Source: Bacteroidota bacterium | GTDB taxonomy: Bacteria > Bacteroidota > Bacteroidia > UKL13-3 | Assembly (NCBI GenBank): GCA_027491085.1 | Contig: JAIXWW010000012.1 | Span: 170,628 to 234,627, forward strand | DNA: 64,000 bases | Reading direction: 5' to 3' | In this document: in pieces, positions 1 to 12,087 of the stretch | Numbering within the stretch: position 1 is the stretch's first letter | How the letters are laid out: every line of letters begins with the position of its first letter | The notes under the pieces: model-generated | Seen by the model: the letters and a program-made list of their open reading frames with translations, nothing else | Databases searched by the model: none | Told to the model about the DNA's origin: nothing | Program-made: the position numbers and the translations under genes

Positions 1-447
1 TCCGCCAATTCCTTCGCTATTAATAACTACGCTATAGCCTTTAGCCTCTTTTACCAGATTACTTTTGTATATAAAAGCATTGTCAATTCCACGCTCATCT
101 TCACCTTCAAAAAATACCGTTTTATAGGCCATTTTTTGTAATTGTTTATTTTTGGTTAAATCAGTTAAAGCCTCTATACTTTCTACCTCACACATTCCCA
201 AAAAATCAGCTCCTTCCCCATTCTTAAAACTAGCTATTACTTTAGCCATTTGGTTTAATTTGGTTAAGTAACGTTCCGTATTCCACTTATATTTACCATT
301 GGGTAAAAATTCAGCATCATTTTTATTGGGATTATCAATGGTGTCAAATAAATTTTCTTGATTATAAAATGCCACACACACCTTTTGCTGCGCGTTAACA
401 TGATAGATGGACAATAAAAAAATAACTGAGATAATAATTTTTTTCAT
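1..447 (-). CDS. endonuclease/exonuclease/phosphatase (EEP) family protein, secreted; C-terminus runs off the window
   Basis: Own reverse-strand translation from ATG (445-447): MKKIIISVIFLLSIYHVNAQQKVCVAFYNQENLFDTIDNPNKNDAEF...FLGMCEVESIEAL...GEDERGIDNAFIY. Signal peptide plus YNxENLFD, EVE and DxRGID motifs typical of EEP nucleases. Absent from the ORF track because it is open at the window edge. Confidence 0.7.
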   Translation of the reverse strand, partial: MKKIIISVIFLLSIYHVNAQQKVCVAFYNQENLFDTIDNPNKNDAEFLPNGKYKWNTERYLTKLNQMAKVIASFKNGEGADFLGMCEVESIEALTDLTKNKQLQKMAYKTVFFEGEDERGIDNAFIYKSNLVKEAKGYSVVINSEGIGG

Positions 448-499
448 GAGGCAATTTTAATTTATTGTTTGCTGTCAAACAATTTAAATATTCATTCTT

Positions 500-550
500 T
501 TACAATTTATCTTTTAAATACTTAGCTGTATAGCTTTGTGCCTTGCAATG
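500..550 (-). pseudogene. relic of a UvrA C-terminus (..CKAQSYTAKYLKDKL*), displaced copy of the uvrA 3' end
   Basis: Reverse-strand translation of 500-550 gives HCKAQSYTAKYLKDKL-stop. Eleven residues are identical to the end of the intact uvrA at 2834-2866, and the pattern resembles the canonical UvrA tail (E. coli ..ECEASHTARFLKPML). Confidence 0.6.
503..535 (-). repeat. left copy of 33-nt imperfect direct repeat (uvrA 3' end), att-like
   Basis: caatttatcttttaaatacttagctgtatagct versus 2834-2866 caacttatccttcaaatacttggctgtataact: 28/33 identical, and all 5 mismatches are synonymous third-codon positions. Confidence 0.75.
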
Positions 551-804
551 AAAACCTCTTTTATTTATCTCAGCAAAGCAAAGGGACGCTTATGCTCTAT
601 ATTCTTCCTAAATTTAATAACGCTTGTGATAAACGTTAAAATGACATCCTTTAATACTTTTGCTTTATGATAGCATTACCAAACTGCTTTCAATAAAAAT
701 TGGTTTAAACATTCTAAAATAAATTTCTCCTAAAAAGTAAAAACTACTCCTATTTTTAAAACAAATGAATATAATTGTAGGAGAAAAAACGAACTTAAGT
801 TGCT

Positions 805-833
805 CCAATCCACCCAAATTTGGGTTGGCTTGG
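805..833. promoter_or_regulatory. imperfect 29-nt palindrome with perfect 14-nt core acccaaatttgggt (812-825), 80-100 nt upstream of the 906 ORF
   Basis: ccaatccacccaaatttgggttggcttgg. The core is a perfect inverted repeat and the outer arms match 6/7 with one indel. No T-run follows, so an operator is more likely than a terminator. Confidence 0.35.
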
Positions 834-905
834 AGAAAGTTTATAGGGGAAAACTTCTTATATAAATGAGTTATCGGGCAGCCTAAAAGACGACACAGAA
901 AATAA

Positions 906-1448
906 ATGACAGACTTCAAAACATACTATAATTCAAATTTTCGAGACGACTTAAATCGGTTCTTCTCGACAATTCCTGATGAAAGTAAGTTTCACGAAGA
1001 CAATCAAAACAAACAGACATTTTCAATTCAATACGAAAGATTAACACCAGCATTTGACCATCTTAACTTTTTAGACAAAGAAAGAAAAGAATATTTTGCA
1101 GTAGCACTCTTCCTTACGGTTTTAACAGATATGGTTTGCTTTTCGCATTATAAACCGAATTACAACAAATTCAGAAGTCTAACAAGATATCCAAAGTTCA
1201 TTGGCAATTGCCCTGGTGGATGTAACTACCATTATCACCCAAGCGACATATTTTTTGCTATGAACAAAGGACGTTCTTCAAGCGAACAGCATTTAGTTTT
1301 CTATGATAAGTTTTTAGAAGCAATAGAAACTATGAAGGCAGAAACAATTAATTTTTTTAAAGAACATTTAATGGAAGTAAATGGAGAGTTATTTTGGGAT
1401 AAATGCCAAAGCGAATTTCCATACAGACCACAAAAAGAAAATATATGA
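906..1448 (+). CDS. hypothetical protein, 180 aa, soluble, C-x3-C-x2-H-x-H motif; translationally coupled to mrr
   Basis: ORF track. ATG preceded by an in-frame stop. Its TGA (1446-1448) overlaps the Mrr ATG (1445-1447). No family recognised. GNCPGGCNYHYHP knuckle at nt 1209-1238. Confidence 0.6.
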   Translation: MTDFKTYYNSNFRDDLNRFFSTIPDESKFHEDNQNKQTFSIQYERLTPAFDHLNFLDKERKEYFAVALFLTVLTDMVCFSHYKPNYNKFRSLTRYPKFIGNCPGGCNYHYHPSDIFFAMNKGRSSSEQHLVFYDKFLEAIETMKAETINFFKEHLMEVNGELFWDKCQSEFPYRPQKENI

Positions 1449-2362
1449 TACCAGACTACCAATCAATAATGTTACCGTTACTTGAATTTATTGCAGACGG
1501 TAAAGAATACAAAATGCGAAACGTTACAGACGAACTGGCGATAAAATTTGGTGTTACGGAAGAAGAACAAAAAGAATTATTACCTAGCGGAGTAGCACCT
1601 GTGTTTTATAATCGAACTGCTTGGGCAAAAACATATTTAAAAAAGGCAGGCTTAATCGACAGCCCAAAACAAGGAATTGTTATCATTTCTAAGAGAGGCA
1701 TAGAGGTACTTAAGAAAAAGCCAAGTTCAATTAATGTGAAGTTTTTAAAACAATTTTCTGAATTTGTTGCATTTCAAACCGTAAAACGCGAAGACGAAAG
1801 TGAAACAGAAACAGAAACTAGCGAGGAGCAGTCTATACAGACACCTGAAGAGCTATTAGAAATGGCATATCAGAAGATAAGAAAATCATTAGCATCTGAA
1901 CTCATAAGCAAAGTGGTTGAACTATCACCAGCATTTTTTGAGAGACTTGTAGTTGAACTGTTAGTAAAAATGGGTTATGGTGGTTCAATCAAAGACGCGG
2001 GTAAAGCAATGGGGAAAAGTGGTGACGAAGGAATTGATGGAACAATAAAAGAAGACAAACTTGGGCTTGACATTATCTACATTCAAGCCAAGCGATGGAA
2101 GCCAGGAAATGTTGTTGGACGACCAGAAATTCAAAAATTTGTTGGTGCACTTGCCGGACAAGGCGCTAAAAAAGGAATTTTCATTACTACCTCAAATTTT
2201 ACTAAGGAAGCTTTGGACTATACACCGAGAAATGAAACAAAAATTGTTCTCATTGACGGTGAACAGTTGGCTCAACTGATGATTGACTATAATCTTGGTT
2301 GCACTTCTCAGCAGACCTATGAAGTTAAAAAATTAGACAGCGACTACTTTGGAGAAGAATAA
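1445..2362 (+). CDS. mrr: Mrr-family type IV (modification-dependent) restriction endonuclease
   Basis: N-terminal Mrr_N-like winged helix (MIPDYQSIMLPLLEFIADGKEYKMRNVTDELA...YNRTAWAKTYLKKAGLI). C-terminal PD-(D/E)xK Mrr_cat core (GDEGIDGTIKEDKLGLDIIYIQAKRWK). Start moved to the ATG at 1445, where homology to the Mrr N-terminus begins. Confidence 0.85.
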   Translation: MIPDYQSIMLPLLEFIADGKEYKMRNVTDELAIKFGVTEEEQKELLPSGVAPVFYNRTAWAKTYLKKAGLIDSPKQGIVIISKRGIEVLKKKPSSINVKFLKQFSEFVAFQTVKREDESETETETSEEQSIQTPEELLEMAYQKIRKSLASELISKVVELSPAFFERLVVELLVKMGYGGSIKDAGKAMGKSGDEGIDGTIKEDKLGLDIIYIQAKRWKPGNVVGRPEIQKFVGALAGQGAKKGIFITTSNFTKEALDYTPRNETKIVLIDGEQLAQLMIDYNLGCTSQQTYEVKKLDSDYFGEE

Positions 2363-2542
2363 AGCATACGGACGACAAGAAGGCCGACCCGATAACACGG
2401 GTTTGGCAAAAGTAGCGGTTCAGTGCTCCGCAGACATATTTGTGGTTAATCAAAGTTTGGTTCTCCGCTTCAATATTTGTGGTGAAAATCGCCACCTTCG
2501 CCAAGCCCGAAAACGTTAGTAAAGAAACAATTTTTTTAAATC

Positions 2543-2812
2543 TCATTTTTTCCAAATTTTAGGATTCCTGCTTGAATGAAAAATATGGTGAATCAATATC
2601 GTATTGTCCTCAATTGAATAAAATACCTCAAATGGAAATCTATTTACCAAAAGCATTCTAAAGTCTTTGTAAATTTTAGCAAAAAGTAATGGGTTTTTCT
2701 TTATTAGTTCAAATGCGTTCTCAACTTCACACAAAAACTCAAAACCAAGCTTATCTTTTTGATCATTATACCATCCAGTCGTTGCAGGCGTCCTCAGGCT
2801 GCAACAAAAACC
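2543..2812 (-). pseudogene. ParE/RelE-family type II toxin, N-terminally truncated, no start codon and no antitoxin gene
   Basis: The tail ..WYNDQKDKLGFEFLCEVENAFELIKKNPLLFAKIYKDFRMLLVNRFPFEVFYSIEDNTILIHHIFHSSRNPKIW is ParE-like. The frame is open back to 2812 but has no ATG before the internal Met at 2734, and the first ~20-30 residues of a normal ParE are missing. Confidence 0.6.
2779..2803 (-). terminator. GC-rich hairpin gttgcag-N11-ctgcaac just downstream of the uvrA stop
   Basis: 7-bp perfect stem, 25-50 nt after the uvrA stop. No clear U-tract, so terminator function is tentative. Confidence 0.3.
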
Positions 2813-2827
2813 CTATTAAATCTCTGT

Positions 2828-5683
2828 TTACTTCAACTTATCCTTCAAATACTTGGCTGTATAACTTTCGGTATTGTTAATTAAATCTTCGGGCAAACCA
2901 GCAAACACTAAGTTTCCGCCTTCATCGCCAGCTTGTGGACCAAGGTCAACAATATAATCAGCGCATTTAGCCACATCCATATTATGTTCAATTACAATAA
3001 TGGTATGTCCTTGGTCAATCAATGCATTAAACGATGTCAATAATTTATTGATATCGTTAAAATGTAAACCTGTAGTTGGTTCATCAAAAATAAATAACAC
3101 ATGTTCTGAACTTGCACGTTTACCCAAGAAAGAAGCCAATTTTACACGTTGTGCCTCACCCCCACTTAAAGTATTGCTCGATTGACCTAATTTGATATAA
3201 CCCAAACCAACATCCCTCAATGGTTTAATTTTATTAGCAATAGTAGTTTCGTCATGGAAAAACTCCAAAGCTTCATCTACGCTCATGCTCAACAAATCAC
3301 TGATGCTTTTTCCATTGTGTTTGGCATCTAAAACTTCTTCTTTAAACCTTGCACCTTTACATTCATCGCATGGCAAATGTATATCGGCCATAAATTGCAT
3401 TTCAATGGTTACTTCACCTTCGCCTTGGCAAGTTTCGCAGCGGCCACCTTCTACGTTAAAACTAAAGTGTTGCGGTTTAAAACCTCTTGCTTTCGAAATA
3501 GCTAATTGCGAGTACAAATCTCTAATGGCATCGTAAGCTTTTATATAAGTGATGGGGTTACTCCTACTCGATTTGCCAATTGGATTTTGATCAACCATTT
3601 CAATTTGTGTAATGGTTTTTATATCTCCACCAATGCTTTCGTGAGCACCAGTTTTTTCGCCTGTGTAATTACCCAAATGCTTTTGAATAGCAGGATATAA
3701 AATCTTTTTAATTAAAGTAGTTTTTCCACTTCCAGAAACGCCTGTAACCACTGTAAATGCACGCAAAGGGAACTTTACATCAAAACCTTTTAAATTATGC
3801 TGCCTTGCTCCTTTTATTTCAATATAATCTTTCCACTTTCTGCGTTTGGTAGGAACCTCAATTTTTTTAACTCCAGATAAAAACATTCCGGTTAAACTAT
3901 TGGTATCGTTTTTTATAAAATCAATATTTCCTTGCGATACTTTTTCGCCACCATGAATTCCTGCTAAAGGCCCAATGTCAATGATTTCATCGGCTGTTTG
4001 CATTATTTCTTCATCGTGTTCAACCACCACAACTGTATTGCCAATATCACGCAGTTTTTGTAAAACTCTAATCAAATTTTCAGTATCGCGCGGGTGTAAA
4101 CCAATGCTTGGTTCGTCTAAAATATACAACGAGCCAACCAAACTTGAACCTAAAGAAGTAGCCAAATTGATACGTTGCGTTTCGCCACCACTTAAAGTGC
4201 TTGAAAGTCTATTTAACGACAAATAACCTAAACCTACATTTTGCAAAAAGTTCAACCTATTGGTTATTTCAACCAAAATTCTGCTTGCTATTTTTTGATG
4301 TGTTTCCGACAGTTTTAAGTTTTGAAAATAGGCCACACAATCATCAATACTCATGAGTAAAAGTACCGATAAACAAGCGTATTCACTATCGCCATTAAAA
4401 GTATAAACCGCATCCGATTTATTTAAATTAACCAATTTTACATAATTGGCATCTTGGCGCAAACGTGTTCCTCTGCAATCGTAACAAGTAGTTTTACCAC
4501 GATAACGTGCTAACATGACACGGTATTGAATTTTATAGGTTTGTTTTTCTAACTCTTTAAAAAAGCCATTTAAACCGGGCCAACCCGCTCCACCTTGCCA
4601 TAAAAAATCTTTTTGTGATTGGGTTAATTCAAAATATGGTTTGTGTAATGGAAAATCGTTTTTACGGGTAACATGAATAAACATTTGTTTCCATTCTTGC
4701 ATTTTTTCGCCTTTCCAAGGCACAATGGCATCTTCGAAAATGGATAAACCTTTGTCAGGAACTACCAAATCTTCGTCAATCCCAATTACATTACCAAGAC
4801 CTTCGCAAGTTTTACATGCTCCAAAAGGATTATTAAAACTAAACAAATTAACACTTGGTTCTTCAAATTTTTGTCCATCTAGCTCAAAACGATTGTTGAA
4901 CAATTCATATTGCGTTTTTCCTTCGTCATTGATGGTGTGCAGCACACATTCCCCTTCGCCTTCAAAAAATGCAGTTTGTATAGAATCAGAAATTCTGTTT
5001 AAAAAATCTTCATCATTTTGTTGCACTGCAAAGCGATCAATTAACAAATATAGAGGTTCGGCATTTTTAGCTTTAGCTGTTTTCTTTACCAATTCATCAT
5101 TGCTTAAAAATTCTTCAATATCAAGCATTTCATTGTTTAAAAACAAACGATTAAAACCTGTTTGTAAATACACTTCTAATTGCTTACGCAATTCGTTTTC
5201 AGTAATAATAGTTACCAATAAATAGGCTTTGGTATTTTCGGGTAATGCCAAAATATGTTGCACCACATCGTCAATGGTATGGCGTTTTACCATATTGCCA
5301 CTAATGGGCGAAAAGGTAACACCAATGCGAGCAAATAGTAATTTTAAATAATCGTATATTTCGGTTGAAGTAGCAACAGTTGAGCGTGCATTTCGGGTAT
5401 TAACCTTTTGTTCAATAGCTATTGATGGCGAAATACCATGAATATAATCTACATCGGGCTTATTCATTTTACCCAAAAACTGCCTAGCATAAGCCGATAA
5501 ACTTTCTACATACCTGCGCTGCCCTTCGGCATAAAGTGTATCAAAAACCAAACTTGATTTACCTGAACCTGAAACCCCTGTAACTACTGTTAATTTATTA
5601 CGCTTAATGTTTACATCAATATTTTTTAAATTGTGTGCACGAGCGCCTTTGATGATAATTTCCTTGTTATTTGATTGACTCAT
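2828..5683 (-). CDS. uvrA: excinuclease ABC subunit UvrA
   Basis: 951 aa. Two ABC ATPase modules (GVSGSGKSSL; GVSGSGKTTL; LSGGE signature twice) and zinc-finger Cys clusters (CKTCEG, CETCQGEG). Confidence 0.97.
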   Translation of the reverse strand: MSQSNNKEIIIKGARAHNLKNIDVNIKRNKLTVVTGVSGSGKSSLVFDTLYAEGQRRYVESLSAYARQFLGKMNKPDVDYIHGISPSIAIEQKVNTRNARSTVATSTEIYDYLKLLFARIGVTFSPISGNMVKRHTIDDVVQHILALPENTKAYLLVTIITENELRKQLEVYLQTGFNRLFLNNEMLDIEEFLSNDELVKKTAKAKNAEPLYLLIDRFAVQQNDEDFLNRISDSIQTAFFEGEGECVLHTINDEGKTQYELFNNRFELDGQKFEEPSVNLFSFNNPFGACKTCEGLGNVIGIDEDLVVPDKGLSIFEDAIVPWKGEKMQEWKQMFIHVTRKNDFPLHKPYFELTQSQKDFLWQGGAGWPGLNGFFKELEKQTYKIQYRVMLARYRGKTTCYDCRGTRLRQDANYVKLVNLNKSDAVYTFNGDSEYACLSVLLLMSIDDCVAYFQNLKLSETHQKIASRILVEITNRLNFLQNVGLGYLSLNRLSSTLSGGETQRINLATSLGSSLVGSLYILDEPSIGLHPRDTENLIRVLQKLRDIGNTVVVVEHDEEIMQTADEIIDIGPLAGIHGGEKVSQGNIDFIKNDTNSLTGMFLSGVKKIEVPTKRRKWKDYIEIKGARQHNLKGFDVKFPLRAFTVVTGVSGSGKTTLIKKILYPAIQKHLGNYTGEKTGAHESIGGDIKTITQIEMVDQNPIGKSSRSNPITYIKAYDAIRDLYSQLAISKARGFKPQHFSFNVEGGRCETCQGEGEVTIEMQFMADIHLPCDECKGARFKEEVLDAKHNGKSISDLLSMSVDEALEFFHDETTIANKIKPLRDVGLGYIKLGQSSNTLSGGEAQRVKLASFLGKRASSEHVLFIFDEPTTGLHFNDINKLLTSFNALIDQGHTIIVIEHNMDVAKCADYIVDLGPQAGDEGGNLVFAGLPEDLINNTESYTAKYLKDKLK
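2834..2866 (-). repeat. right copy of 33-nt imperfect direct repeat (functional uvrA 3' end)
   Basis: See left copy at 503-535. Same orientation, encodes SYTAKYLKDKL. Confidence 0.75.
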
Positions 5684-10062: not shown

Positions 10063-12087
10063 TTAGTCGGCTTTAGGCGTTTGATTTTTTAAAGTTCTAA
10101 TGGTTTTTATTTTATCTTCTAGCTCTTTAATCATACGTTTTGCAGCAGCAATTTTATCATTGATTTGAATTACCATTTCGTTTTTAGCATTGGTATTTTT
10201 AAAGAAACCGAGGTTATTATCCCATGTATCAATATCGGTTTTTAAACCTTTAATACGTTCTTGTAAAATGCGCTCTTCACGCTGTAAACGTTGGCCACCA
10301 TCATTGTTATTAGCTAACGATTCAAAATGTGCTCTATCATCGGCTTGGCGCATGTTTTTGCGTAACTCGCGGTGACGACCATAAATTTTATCCAATAAAT
10401 CATTGTATGCTTTGCTAATAGCATCTTTGTCTTTATTTGGTACAAATCCAATTTTGCTCCAAGCATCTTGAATGGTTTTTAGCTCATTTAATGCATTAGG
10501 ATTTTCAGCCTCATTGGCAGCCATTGCTTCTAATTGCGTAATCAATTCTTTTTTAGCAATTAAATTTCCTCCTTGCTCCGCATTTTGCTCCGCAAAACGT
10601 TCTGCTTTCTTTTCAAAAAACAAATCGCAAGCAGTTCTAAATTTCTTCCAAATTTCATCGTTAAATTTATCAGGAACTGGACCAACTTGTTTCCATTGTT
10701 CTTGTAAATTTTTAATGGTAGCAGTTTGTTTACCCCAATCAATTGGCGCAGCAGCAATATTTTCTGCTTCTTTTACCAACTCTTGTTTTTTCTTTAAATT
10801 TTCGTTTCTAACCGCGTTAAACGATTTGAACCAATTGTTTTTATTGTTAAAGAAAGTATTGCGAATATCTTTAAATTCTTCCCAAACTTTTTCTCTTTCC
10901 GCCATTGGCACGTAACCAATTTTTTTCCACTCTTCCATTAATTCATTGGCTTCTTTGGTTTTTTCCATCCAATCTTTAATACGAGTAGTAGCATAAGTAG
11001 CCAACTCTTTCGATTTTTCAATCAAAGCCAATTTCAATACTAAGTTAGCTTGACGAACAGCTTCATTTTTTTCTGTTTCGGCTTTAATACCAGCATATAT
11101 TTTATCTACTTCAGCTTTAAAACGAGTCCAAATTTCTTCGTTGGCTTCTTTAGGAACTGGGCCAATATTTCTCCAATCTTCTTGGTATTTTTTAACTGCA
11201 ATCAAAGCCGATTTAATGCTTTTTTCTTCAGCTAATTCGCTTACTTTTTTGCATAAATCTATTTTAGCATCTAAGTTACGTTCTCTGTCTAATTGCGCAA
11301 TTTCATTATCTATACTTAATTTATCATAAAAAATTTCGTTAAGTACTCTATAACTTTCCCAAAGGCGTTCTACGTGTTCTTTTGGAACATTCTTAATTTT
11401 TTTCCATTCAGTTTGTAACTCTTTTAATTTAGTCAAACTTTCTTTGGTTTCTTCACTGCTATTTAAAGCCTTAATTTGGTCTAAAATATTTTCTTTAGCA
11501 CGTAAATTTTTAACGCGTTCAGCCTCTGCTATAGCTTTAGCAGCTGATATTTTATCGCGTAAATCTTTGATAGCTTTATTAAATGTATCGCGGGCAGTTA
11601 CACCGGCTTTGTATTCAAAATCGTCTTTTTCGCCACCTTCTTCAATAAACTTTTGCATAGCTGCATTTTGTTCTTCGTTTAAAGCAGCGTCAAAGTGTGG
11701 TTTTATATCTTTAAAAATTTGCAAAGCTTCACTGTGAGGCTTGTCGCTCATAGCTTGTAAAGCTATAGTAAGTAACTCGTCTTTGGTTTTGTTTGCATAA
11801 TCTAATTGCTCAGCACTTTCATGGTGTTCAATTGCAGCTAAATCAGCATCTATTTCATGCTCATCAAGCGCTATTTCAATTGAATCAGTTACTAAACTTT
11901 CAATAGTTTCCGGCTTTTTTTCTGTGTTATCTTCTTCAACAATAGTTGGCTCAACACTTGCTGTAGGCTCAGCAACAGTACTTTCACTTACTACACTTTC
12001 AGTCGTAGTATTTTCTACATTAGTTAACTCAGTAGCTTCTGCATTTAATGCAGCTTCAGAAGGATTCACTTCGTTTAATTCAGTCAT
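10063..12087 (-). CDS. DUF349 domain-containing protein (acidic N-terminus, repeated helical W-x-x-IG-x-VP units)
   Basis: 674 aa with about five repeats of the form EW+KIG.VP+....W..F, the DUF349 repeat signature. Confidence 0.8.
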   Translation of the reverse strand: MTELNEVNPSEAALNAEATELTNVENTTTESVVSESTVAEPTASVEPTIVEEDNTEKKPETIESLVTDSIEIALDEHEIDADLAAIEHHESAEQLDYANKTKDELLTIALQAMSDKPHSEALQIFKDIKPHFDAALNEEQNAAMQKFIEEGGEKDDFEYKAGVTARDTFNKAIKDLRDKISAAKAIAEAERVKNLRAKENILDQIKALNSSEETKESLTKLKELQTEWKKIKNVPKEHVERLWESYRVLNEIFYDKLSIDNEIAQLDRERNLDAKIDLCKKVSELAEEKSIKSALIAVKKYQEDWRNIGPVPKEANEEIWTRFKAEVDKIYAGIKAETEKNEAVRQANLVLKLALIEKSKELATYATTRIKDWMEKTKEANELMEEWKKIGYVPMAEREKVWEEFKDIRNTFFNNKNNWFKSFNAVRNENLKKKQELVKEAENIAAAPIDWGKQTATIKNLQEQWKQVGPVPDKFNDEIWKKFRTACDLFFEKKAERFAEQNAEQGGNLIAKKELITQLEAMAANEAENPNALNELKTIQDAWSKIGFVPNKDKDAISKAYNDLLDKIYGRHRELRKNMRQADDRAHFESLANNNDGGQRLQREERILQERIKGLKTDIDTWDNNLGFFKNTNAKNEMVIQINDKIAAAKRMIKELEDKIKTIRTLKNQTPKAD

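Follow-up and report, generated by a model that had tools for sequence, protein, structure and literature searches.

The last codons of uvrA occur twice in a 64-kb stretch of DNA (the window) from Bacteroidota bacterium GCA_027491085.1, contig JAIXWW010000012.1, and a type IV restriction gene (Mrr), a gene for a 180-residue protein (ORF180) and a toxin remnant lie between the two copies. This arrangement raises two questions, namely what the DNA between the copies is and how it came to the end of uvrA. An earlier annotation of the same DNA, made from the sequence alone (the original prediction), had read the copies as att-like repeats around an integrated island. In the present study, we compared the locus with conspecific contigs and with metagenomic loci that carry the same cargo; coordinates are window positions unless a contig is named. 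We conclude, with a probability of about 0.68, that an insertion of 2,331 bp, present in some strains and absent from others, occupies 538-2868 at the last 12 codons of uvrA, and that the insert is an integrase-less, integron-like cassette platform served by a recombinase in trans. The insert would consist of three parts: a non-coding platform of 330 bp; one intact cassette of ORF180 plus Mrr with an attC-like hairpin of about 130 nucleotides (nt); and the stump of an older ParE toxin cassette (Table 1).

The repeated end of uvrA and its empty site

The repeat finder returned 503-537 and 2834-2868 as a direct repeat with 30 of 35 nt identical. As the original prediction had described, 28/33 nt agree over SYTAKYLKDKL, and all five differences are synonymous third-position changes. 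On the minus strand, the codons of the left copy (the relic) read CAA AGC TAT ACA GCT AAG TAT TTA AAA GAT AAA TTG TAA (QSYTAKYLKDKL, then stop), and those of the uvrA tail read GAA AGT TAT ACA GCC AAG TAT TTG AAG GAT AAG TTG AAG (ESYTAKYLKDKLK). Among all 33-mers on both strands of the window, the second-best match to the 33-mer of the tail reached 22/33, and no match within three mismatches arose in 100 shuffles. When all tails and relics were aligned, the similarity proved to be limited to about 36 nt, with sharp edges.

Contig L176 (3.9 kb, JGI 3300046832) comes from a conspecific strain with 95% nucleotide identity to the window. Its uvrA ends in …SYTAKYLKDKL and a stop (…AAAGTTATACAGCCAAGTATTTAAAGGATAAATTGTAA), which is followed by AAAGAATGAATATTTAAATTGTTTGACAGCAAACAATAAATTAAAATTGCCTC and then by the ATG of the EEP-family nuclease gene, and the distance from the stop to the EEP start is 53 nt. 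BLAST aligned L176 250-3190 to window 5780-2834 and L176 3156-3693 to window 537-1, and the 35 nt at L176 3156-3190 aligned to both repeat copies. In this close relative, the site is unoccupied and holds a single copy of the repeat. These results indicated that the window holds a 2,331-bp insertion (538-2868, equivalently 503-2833), that the relic is the native tail and that the working gene uses the incoming tail. The original prediction had foreseen such an empty site with uvrA directly beside the EEP nuclease gene. It was also borne out in taking all DNA between the copies as inserted accessory DNA, since L176 has a single tail, and in proposing an incoming replacement 3' end: judged from the empty site, the working uvrA ends in KDKLK and the relic is the native KDKL tail. 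The repeats flanking the insert derive from the 3' end of the target gene, and the incoming copy restores that gene, as at islands in gene 3' ends. The incoming DNA would bring its own uvrA end, so that the gene stays intact with the new tail …KDKLK, and the native tail, stop and hairpin would be displaced by 2.3 kb, persisting as a relic beside the EEP gene. The hairpin at 465-482 was probably the original uvrA terminator.

The original prediction had further called the relic a coding sequence kept or derived under selection. Two of the five repeat differences arose in the relic of the window strain; the other three distinguish the native tail from the incoming one and vary among natural uvrA alleles as well. 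The synonymous pattern is therefore explained by descent from two functional alleles and is no evidence of present selection on the relic. The minus-strand frame ending at 500 reads …CKAQSYTAKYLKDKL followed by a stop, and stops upstream break the relic frame. The segment AAAGTTATACAGCCAAGTATTT was identical in the empty site of L176, in the tails of the window, L173 and L175 and in the relic of L173; it carried one substitution in the tail of L172 and two in the window relic. The distal part of the incoming tail, G..AAGTTGAAGTAA, differs from the native A..AAATTGTAA.

A duplicated gene end could also be the remnant of a uvrA paralogue deleted in situ, or an assembly artefact. UvrA is internally duplicated in tandem, and bacteria can carry class II uvrA paralogues; moreover, the source assembly breaks inside the insert, at 2467/2489. 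However, the similarity spans only about 36 nt with sharp edges, L176 joins both flanks seamlessly, the relic is also present in an independent JGI assembly of another sample (L173), and the two Logan contigs of the window match it at 100%. The deleted paralogue, which the original prediction had itself named as an outcome that would count against it, is excluded by L176 and L173, provided that these contigs are genuine, and we regard this explanation as a whole, artefact included, as hardly credible.

Conspecific UvrA sequences (about 99% identity) and their contigs were drawn from a large protein collection. The species-representative genomes were too distant, the best UvrA being 73, 70 and 68% identical, and no synteny with the window was found in the nearest species representatives (UvrA 68-73%). 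UvrA homologues at 82-91% were set aside as well, as gyrB, BrkB and FlK genes adjoin uvrA there and the event cannot be polarised from them. The route through EEP homologues (85-87% identical) was uninformative, as both EEP flanks differ in those contigs. Both EEP flanks are rearranged among relatives; in one contig with an 87%-identical EEP gene (L085), that gene is immediately followed by one for a Y1 transposase of the IS200/IS605 type, at 10476-10928. Contigs with UvrA about 99% identical can have wholly different neighbourhoods, with TPR and PKD genes in L175 and L177 and a 135-aa gene and EEP in the window and L173. The strong mosaicism of uvrA alleles suggests frequent recombination or transfer of uvrA among related lineages.

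Cargo turnover and the attC-like site

The 158-kb JGI contig L173 carries the same locus with other cargo, and the genes on both sides of its uvrA locus are conserved. By blastn, L173 aligns with window 8000-2807 and with window 874-1 and differs in the stretch between. Its relic is 32/36 identical to its own uvrA tail; it contains neither ORF180 nor Mrr, and two other small open reading frames (ORFs) with attC-like sites stand instead. With a caret marking the junction, here and below, L173 reads …GGCATATAAC^TTGTTTATATAGGAAG… at the switch point and the window (reverse complement) reads …GCCCGATAAC^TCATTTATATAAGAAG…, so that the switch falls exactly at GTTAT, window 870. The presence of relic and platform without Mrr indicated that the duplication is older than the Mrr pair. 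The platform is 16% diverged between the window and L173, about equal to the synonymous divergence of uvrA in these strains, and one old insertion with later cargo turnover therefore suffices. A further contig, L172 (99% UvrA), shares 54 nt past the uvrA stop with the window and then continues with yet other genes. The original prediction had treated the Mrr pair as cargo of the island. The pair is indeed bracketed by the repeats, but L173 keeps relic and platform with two other cassettes. A relic in relatives that lack the pair had been named beforehand as counting against an island; this is formally the state of L173, and we read it as cargo turnover inside an older insertion.

Aligned ORF180 homologues were used to scan metagenomes, and 80 loci were returned. 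When these were compared by BLAST, the homology of more than 20 contigs to the window started at 870 and ended at 2518/2519, whatever surrounded it, which defines a unit of 1.65 kb. The unit is 98.5% identical in L091, 99.7% in L004 and 99.4% in L003, and about 76-80% identical in at least 15 other contigs. The copies in L003 and L004, to which a look-up of the exact protein had led, adjoin SpoU, S4 and integrase genes in a flank of 40.6% GC content, and the copy in L091 lies within another array. With 98.5-99.7% identity elsewhere against a platform diverged by 16%, the cassette must have come much later than the repeat. BLAST-anchored extraction showed that the ORF180 cassette begins with GTTA in more than 35 distinct upstream contexts, which are either the …AAAAC end of another site or the motif tataaaNNNa. 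The cassettes are thus found exchanged as G^TT-bounded units across arrays and contexts. They would be swapped at GTTAT by a tyrosine recombinase in trans, of the Xer/IntI-like type found near the arrays of L003, L108 and L128. The 5' end of the cassette, GTTATCGGGCAGCC (870-883, 14 nt), is complementary to GGCCGACCCGATAAC (2382-2396, 15 nt), which immediately precedes the stem of the site that closes the cassette; this would be expected if the two were adjacent in a circular intermediate, where the pairing would extend the R-box helix.

These limits bear on the possibility that a self-contained island, with ORF180 and Mrr (plus ParE) as its cargo, brought the repeat and later lost its own integrase. 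The direct repeats around the cargo and the empty site agree with such an island, as do the truncated ParE and the tyrosine recombinase beside the same cassette in L003. However, relic and platform occur without ORF180 and Mrr in L173, the pair has its own limits at 870-2518 and is nearly identical elsewhere while the platform is diverged, and tblastn found no integrase remnant in 538-869. We consider a self-contained island very improbable. The compositional check that the original prediction had proposed gave 34.7% GC in the insert versus 31.6% in the window and a tetranucleotide distance at the 93rd percentile, a mild and non-decisive deviation.

The platform ends in the junction …TATAAATGA^GTTAT. 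Upstream of the first cassette, the motif tataaaNNNa^GTTA is found in the window and in L173, L003, L092, L126, L097, L128 and L099; it lies 170 nt from the integrase start in L003 and 75 nt after the integrase stop in L128. The palindrome CCCAAATTTGGG is common to the window, L173 and, at the equivalent place, the unrelated contig L126. We read the non-block sequence before first cassettes as an attI-like site. The attI-like regions L126 170-245 and L092 40-112 each hold two copies of GTATGA-N5/6-TCATAC around a CCCAAATTTGGG-type motif, upstream of GTTAT; these palindromes are candidate protein-binding sites. No further copies of the attC-like block, platform or hairpin were found within the window. 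If the platform end is attI-like, the ParE stump at the distal end is what remains of an older toxin-antitoxin cassette, typical integron cargo. As the original prediction had stated, ParE is decapitated: it is truncated at about residue 28 with in-frame stops upstream, its homology to L172 ends at 2774, and neither a full-length toxin nor a cognate upstream antitoxin is present.

The cassette ends in the GC-rich block of the original prediction. attC sites are bounded by the inverse core sites R'' (RYYYAAC) and R' (G^TTRRRY), of which AAC and GTT are the most conserved triplets; structure is kept over sequence, the length is about 57-141 nt, and in the canonical geometry the bottom strand, which is the recombinogenic one, is marked by extrahelical bases and an unpaired central spacer. 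The window block has a 5' ..GATAAC box (AAC at 2394-2396) and a 3' AAAAC-G^TTA box (G2515^T2516), reading ..CGATAAC.. and ..AAAACGTTAG. Its centre holds two imperfect tandem repeats of about 37 nt, GTTCAGTGCTCCGCAGACATATTTGTGGTTAATCAAA, at 2418-2449 and 2455-2486; they are kept across many copies, and some copies have three. Iterated nhmmer found about 100 copies in the ORF180 loci, all on the ORF180 strand, and neither nhmmer nor the covariance model found any in about 1.5 Mb of uvrA control loci. Most copies are 132 nt long including 4 flanking nt on each side, and a few reach 150-180 nt by central insertions. They start with …(C/T)TAAC-A and end with AAA(A/C)C-GTT(A/G), and the sequence past GTT varies from copy to copy. 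In 47 aligned diverse copies, AAC (columns 5-7) and CGTT (columns 131-134) were the only invariant boxed positions. RNAalifold joined the ends by a 17-pair stem with compensatory changes at 16/17 pairs. With the AAC/GTT box, 93.8% of the cells were paired versus 68.4% after shuffling and at most 40% with slid partners, and double-change cells numbered 211 versus 66. The covariance model recognised one site in the window (2390-2521, 126 bits; next match 13 bits) and, in L173, one strong site and one degenerate distal site. The Logan assembly of the source sample SRR16126870 breaks inside the site, at 2467/2489, which is consistent with a site repeated elsewhere in the genome or community.

Same-orientation arrays of such sites between short ORFs, most of them co-oriented, occur in the related loci only. 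They reach 12 sites in L144 and 11 in L146, with 5 in L109; 25 loci have at least two sites, and the median spacing is 1.6 kb. The arrays of L144 (5317-20017) and L146 (2-14421) each lie within 15 kb in one orientation, and some of their sites are extended to 150-180 nt by GC-rich hairpin insertions (..CCCGATAAATCGGG..); no integrase was found within the 20 kb examined near these two arrays. Judged by these features, the blocks show hallmarks of integron attC sites and pass most attC tests, and the unit has the properties of a gene cassette.

The blocks could instead be structured repeats, such as repetitive extragenic palindromes (REP), miniature inverted-repeat transposable elements (MITE) or RNA hairpins of the terminator kind, with the cargo differences arising by ordinary homologous recombination. 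In agreement with this, the blocks follow ORFs as terminators do, most contigs have no linked integrase, the spacer geometry is unlike canonical attC, and there is no Rfam match, the search of 1-3300 at E<=1 giving only a chance snoRNA match. Structured repeats would not account for a cassette homology that stops at an invariant G^TT in dozens of contexts, non-block junctions included, nor for the strictly uniform orientation and 132-nt length, nor for terminal AAC/GTT boxes that stay invariant while the stem covaries. The complementarity of GTTATCGGGCAGCC and GGCCGACCCGATAAC, as expected of a circularising cassette, also speaks against them, and we find this explanation improbable. Taken together, the insert is a small cassette platform of the integron type without an integrase; its cargo varies by strain, and the current type IV restriction cassette is a recent arrival.

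Related recombinases stand at the start of the array in three ORF180 loci. The gene is divergent in L003, 170 nt from GTTAT, and co-oriented and immediately upstream in L108 and L128. The L003 and L108 proteins are 37% identical over their full length, including an N-terminal extension of about 90 aa, and their best NCBIfam match is NF040815, 'site-specific tyrosine recombinase/integron integrase' (207.7 and 220 bits, respectively; cut-off 220). The recombinase of L098 was rejected as an array integrase because it belongs to an IS91 element inserted in the array: L098 2641-4738 holds an IS91-family transposase (NF033538, 8e-113) and its companion tyrosine recombinase between two attC-like sites. 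A likeness of the S4-integrase spacer of L003 to the uvrA core was dropped, as it amounted to a 9-mer only. According to Messier & Roy (2001), as cited in PMC9668308, the IntI-specific additional domain lies around patch III. No adjacent IntI with this domain, as in a complete integron, accompanies the system, which we therefore do not file as a canonical integron.

Profile searches and PADLOC agreed with the gene calls of the original prediction, namely EEP nuclease, a 180-aa ORF without a family, Mrr, a C-terminal ParE fragment and uvrA. The full EEP nuclease gene in contig L002 encodes 338 aa. The Mrr protein has the winged-helix domain Mrr_N (PF14338, 3.9e-31) and the PD-(D/E)xK domain Mrr_cat (PF04471, 8.9e-36), and it matches PADLOC mREase_IV (PDLC03657, 1.6e-90). 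ORF180 matched no Pfam, NCBIfam or PADLOC family, and its confident AlphaFold2 model (pLDDT 85.9, pTM 0.85) had no fold match in the PDB (best E 2.6). Its 170 homologues share a GNCPGGCxYHxHP Cys/His motif in which C102, C106 and H109 are invariant and H111 is nearly so. ORF180 stands first in its cassettes, and outside the Mrr cassette the next gene encodes a GIY-YIG nuclease (L120), a UDG-like protein (L141) or a DUF3276/PurA-like protein (L144), or an attC-like site comes directly after it. The ATGA overlap of the ORF180 stop with the Mrr start suggests a functional pair, and ORF180 could act as the sensing or regulatory partner common to two-gene defence modules. The Mrr cassette would act in anti-phage defence.

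Table 1. Features at the uvrA end of the window, in order of position.
Feature	Position	Strand	Basis or remark
EEP-family extracellular nuclease gene, 5' part; core gene directly after uvrA in the empty-site strain	1-447	-	PF19580, 3.5e-38
Native hairpin TTGTTTGCTGTCAAACAA, flanked by the original uvrA stop and the EEP start	465-482		Same sequence after the uvrA stop in L176
Relic: displaced native uvrA 3' end (left repeat copy 503-537 plus native stop 500-502)	500-537	-	Collinear with the single L176 tail
Platform: non-coding left part of the insertion, ending ..CTTATATAAATGA^GTTAT	538-869	+	84% identity in L173; absent from L176
Hairpin with palindrome CCACCCAAATTTGGGTTGG inside the platform	797-841		Inverted self-match; conserved in L173
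One mobile gene cassette: leader, ORF180, Mrr and attC-like site	870-2518 (integron convention 871-2515, G^TT to G^TT)	+	Homology limits
ORF180, conserved 180-aa protein, CxxxCxxHxH motif	906-1448	+	ATGA shared by its stop and the Mrr start
Mrr-type (type IV, modification-dependent) restriction endonuclease	1445-2362	+	Mrr_N and Mrr_cat
attC-like recombination site (the 'GC-rich block')	2377-2518	+	nhmmer copies, covarying stem, covariance model
ParE/RelE-type toxin remnant; about 28 N-terminal residues and the antitoxin gone	2543-2775	-	PF05016, 23 bits (equal to the cut-off), profile 27-89 of 89
Hairpin GTTGCAGGC..GCTGCAAC shortly past the present uvrA stop; inserted DNA	2781-2805		Shared with L172; L173 and L176 differ
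Present uvrA tail: right repeat copy 2834-2868, extra Lys codon and stop; distal part is incoming DNA	2828-2868	-	Tail alignment, L176 comparison
uvrA, insertion target gene, 951 aa	2828-5683	-	Ends …TESYTAKYLKDKLK and stop

Entry of the platform into uvrA

L177 has a UvrA about 99% identical, with TPR upstream and PKD downstream as in L175. A comparison of L177 12773-13050 with L175 12773-12860 revealed an insertion of 193 nt, made up of a new uvrA tail of 83 nt and about 105 nt like the distal array of L173. The relic of L177 is about 86 nt long, decayed and without its stop, and there is no platform. L177 shows a second, independent duplication of the uvrA end. Array fragments joined to a uvrA tail therefore do pass from one genome to another, and the length of the repeat varies.

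Two routes of entry, att-type recombination and homology-facilitated illegitimate recombination, were weighed. For the former, the exact bracketing repeats and the empty site are joined by two features of the site itself. The conserved 22-nt tail segment contains an imperfect palindrome with a 6-nt spacer (AAATAC-TTGGCT-GTATAA), and the platform-relic junction reads …ACAAAG^TTATAC…, the G^TTA form of the cassette crossover; both known insertion junctions, in the window and in L177, read G^TTA. A circular form would carry an attP junction joining 2827-2868 to 538: …TTTACTTCAACTTATCC…GTATAACTTTG^TGCCTTGC…. The att-like integration of the original prediction thus keeps its bracketing repeats and its empty site, but it is still inference, and the duplication of about 85 nt in L177 leaves illegitimate recombination open.

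In homology-facilitated illegitimate recombination, a donor array would natively follow uvrA; one end would recombine by homology within uvrA, and the other would be joined at the microhomology AAAG, 36 nt before the recipient stop. L177, in another background, with a different junction and without a platform, fits such a product. The same can be said of the missing integrase in the insert, the window and L173, of the absence of uvrA-tail duplications in other species and of the highly mosaic uvrA alleles, which imply frequent recombination in uvrA. Arrays also abut housekeeping genes without repeats, for example in L096 (an ABC-F-like ATPase by its N-terminal sequence) and L099 (a 1,121-aa gene), and the contig of a 91%-identical UvrA, P0242, breaks 158 nt past uvrA, as arrays tend to. 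However, two independent joints fell in the last approximately 90 nt of uvrA and both produced duplications, which is unlikely for random joints. Both junctions carry the crossover motif of the cassette sites, and the conserved tail segment is an imperfect palindrome with a 6-nt spacer. Polymorphisms in uvrA are mosaic throughout, with no clear donor-derived patch of divergence at the 3' end, a pattern uninformative as to the donor, and no donor with a relic-free uvrA-array junction was found. We hold illegitimate recombination to be the less likely route. The trans-acting att-type route, with the platform first entering uvrA by recombinase-mediated recombination at the short tail site, is favoured, but only moderately.

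Several observations weigh against reading the locus as an integrated cassette platform. L176 might represent a precise deletion instead of the ancestral state. A duplicated uvrA tail was found at none of 80 Bacteroidota species-representative loci, so nothing points to a family of elements with uvrA as its routine target, and uvrA is not near any of the 80 ORF180 loci. The duplication in L177, at the same gene end, spans about 83-86 nt, unlike a fixed att core unless extra deletions occurred. As the original prediction had noted for the insert, no recombinase survives: no tyrosine recombinase was found in the insert, the 64-kb window or 22.8 kb of L173. The link between integrase and array comes from three contigs; the scores of L003 and L108 against TIGR02249 'integron integrase' (196.8 and 207 bits) are below the cut-off of 265, and the L003 protein aligned to VchIntIA (2a3v) skips chain residues 213-246, the position of the IntI-specific domain. 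The window has a single attC-like site, and the L172 cargo (1 kb available) has none. The single-strand folding energy of the site is insignificant alone (z = -0.9), its spacers between the boxes (1-2 nt on the 5' side and 5 nt on the 3' side) are unlike canonical attC, and single mismatches interrupt the stem.

A bolder proposal is a distinct integron class in uncultured Bacteroidia, with attC-like sites of about 130 nt, Xer-like recombinases without the IntI domain, and integrase-less platforms that travel as circles recombining at secondary G^TTA sites in the 3' ends of housekeeping genes. An excised circle would take the host gene tail along and re-insert at the same site in another genome, so that both the 35-nt duplication of the window and that of about 85 nt in L177 would be explained. 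We offer this class as speculation and think it rather doubtful.

Significance and comparison with known systems

The ORF180 loci point to a large population, apparently not described before, of cassette arrays of integron type in freshwater and uncultured Bacteroidia, and the site class of these arrays is distinctive. The uvrA locus provides a natural experiment in one species, in which one allele is empty and the occupied ones hold three different cargoes. It shows that the end of a housekeeping gene can host a small cassette platform with turnover of its content, such as a recent type IV restriction cassette. If the recombinase link is true, the system bears on the evolution of integron integrases from Xer-like recombinases and on the minimal features of cassette recombination. 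The covariance model is specific for these sites and could serve to search for further cassettes, whose genes often act in defence or have unknown functions.

Among known systems, the Mrr-family type IV enzymes, which are defence-island cargo, resemble the window protein in having Mrr_N winged-helix and Mrr_cat domains over the full length and a PADLOC mREase_IV match. The window protein differs in its translational coupling to a 180-aa partner, which elsewhere adjoins a GIY-YIG, UDG-like or DUF3276 protein.

Islands and other integrative elements insert in gene 3' ends, classically of tRNA and tmRNA genes and sometimes of protein-coding genes, with an attP that carries a replacement 3' end. 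The uvrA locus is like them in its flanking repeats made of the gene 3' end, in the gene kept intact by the incoming tail, in the displaced native end and in the empty-site allele. It differs in that no cognate integrase is present, the element measures only 1.8-2.3 kb, the repeats are imperfect, the second event has another repeat length and no recurrent targeting of uvrA was seen in other species. With integrative mobile elements exploiting Xer (IMEX), such as CTXphi and the gonococcal genetic island, it shares an integrase-less insert that would need the tyrosine recombinase of the cell and a two-arm core with a 6-nt spacer. In contrast to IMEX, the target lies inside the coding sequence of uvrA and not at chromosomal dif, there is no likeness to the dif consensus, the window contains neither the host dif site nor Xer genes, and a role of XerC/D is only putative here. 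Homology-facilitated illegitimate recombination in natural transformation would leave the same footprint from one-sided homology in uvrA and an AAAG joint, and L177 looks like its product; however, it predicts neither repeated G^TTA joints in the gene tail nor internal turnover of cassettes.

Sedentary chromosomal integrons sit beside housekeeping genes, as the Xanthomonas integron does next to ilvD. The present system differs from integrons in its recombinases, which beside the arrays of L003, L108 and L128 lack the IntI-specific domain, score below the cut-off and carry the N-terminal extension of about 90 aa. It also differs in the asymmetric spacers of the R and L boxes, in two or three central repeats of about 37 nt, in its host, an uncultured Bacteroidia, and in that the whole platform is an insertion bracketed by a duplicated gene end. 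Apart from one complete integron, in Salinibacter, IntegronFinder 2.0 reported nothing but In0 elements in complete genomes of Bacteroidetes (PMC9024848), and reviews list Bacteroidota among the phyla with integrons at low prevalence (PMC8618304, PMC9668308). Clusters of attC sites without an integrase (CALINs) are common (PMC9024848), and integron cassettes carry phage defence (bioRxiv 10.1101/2024.07.02.601719). The likeness to integrons and CALINs lies in one- or two-gene units that end in an imperfect palindrome with terminal AAC...GTT boxes, whose structure is kept while the sequence varies. It extends to a site of about 126 nt, within the attC range, to one orientation per array, to exchange at G^TT, to a first cassette abutting a distinct, putative attI-like site, and to a cargo of toxin-antitoxin and defence genes.

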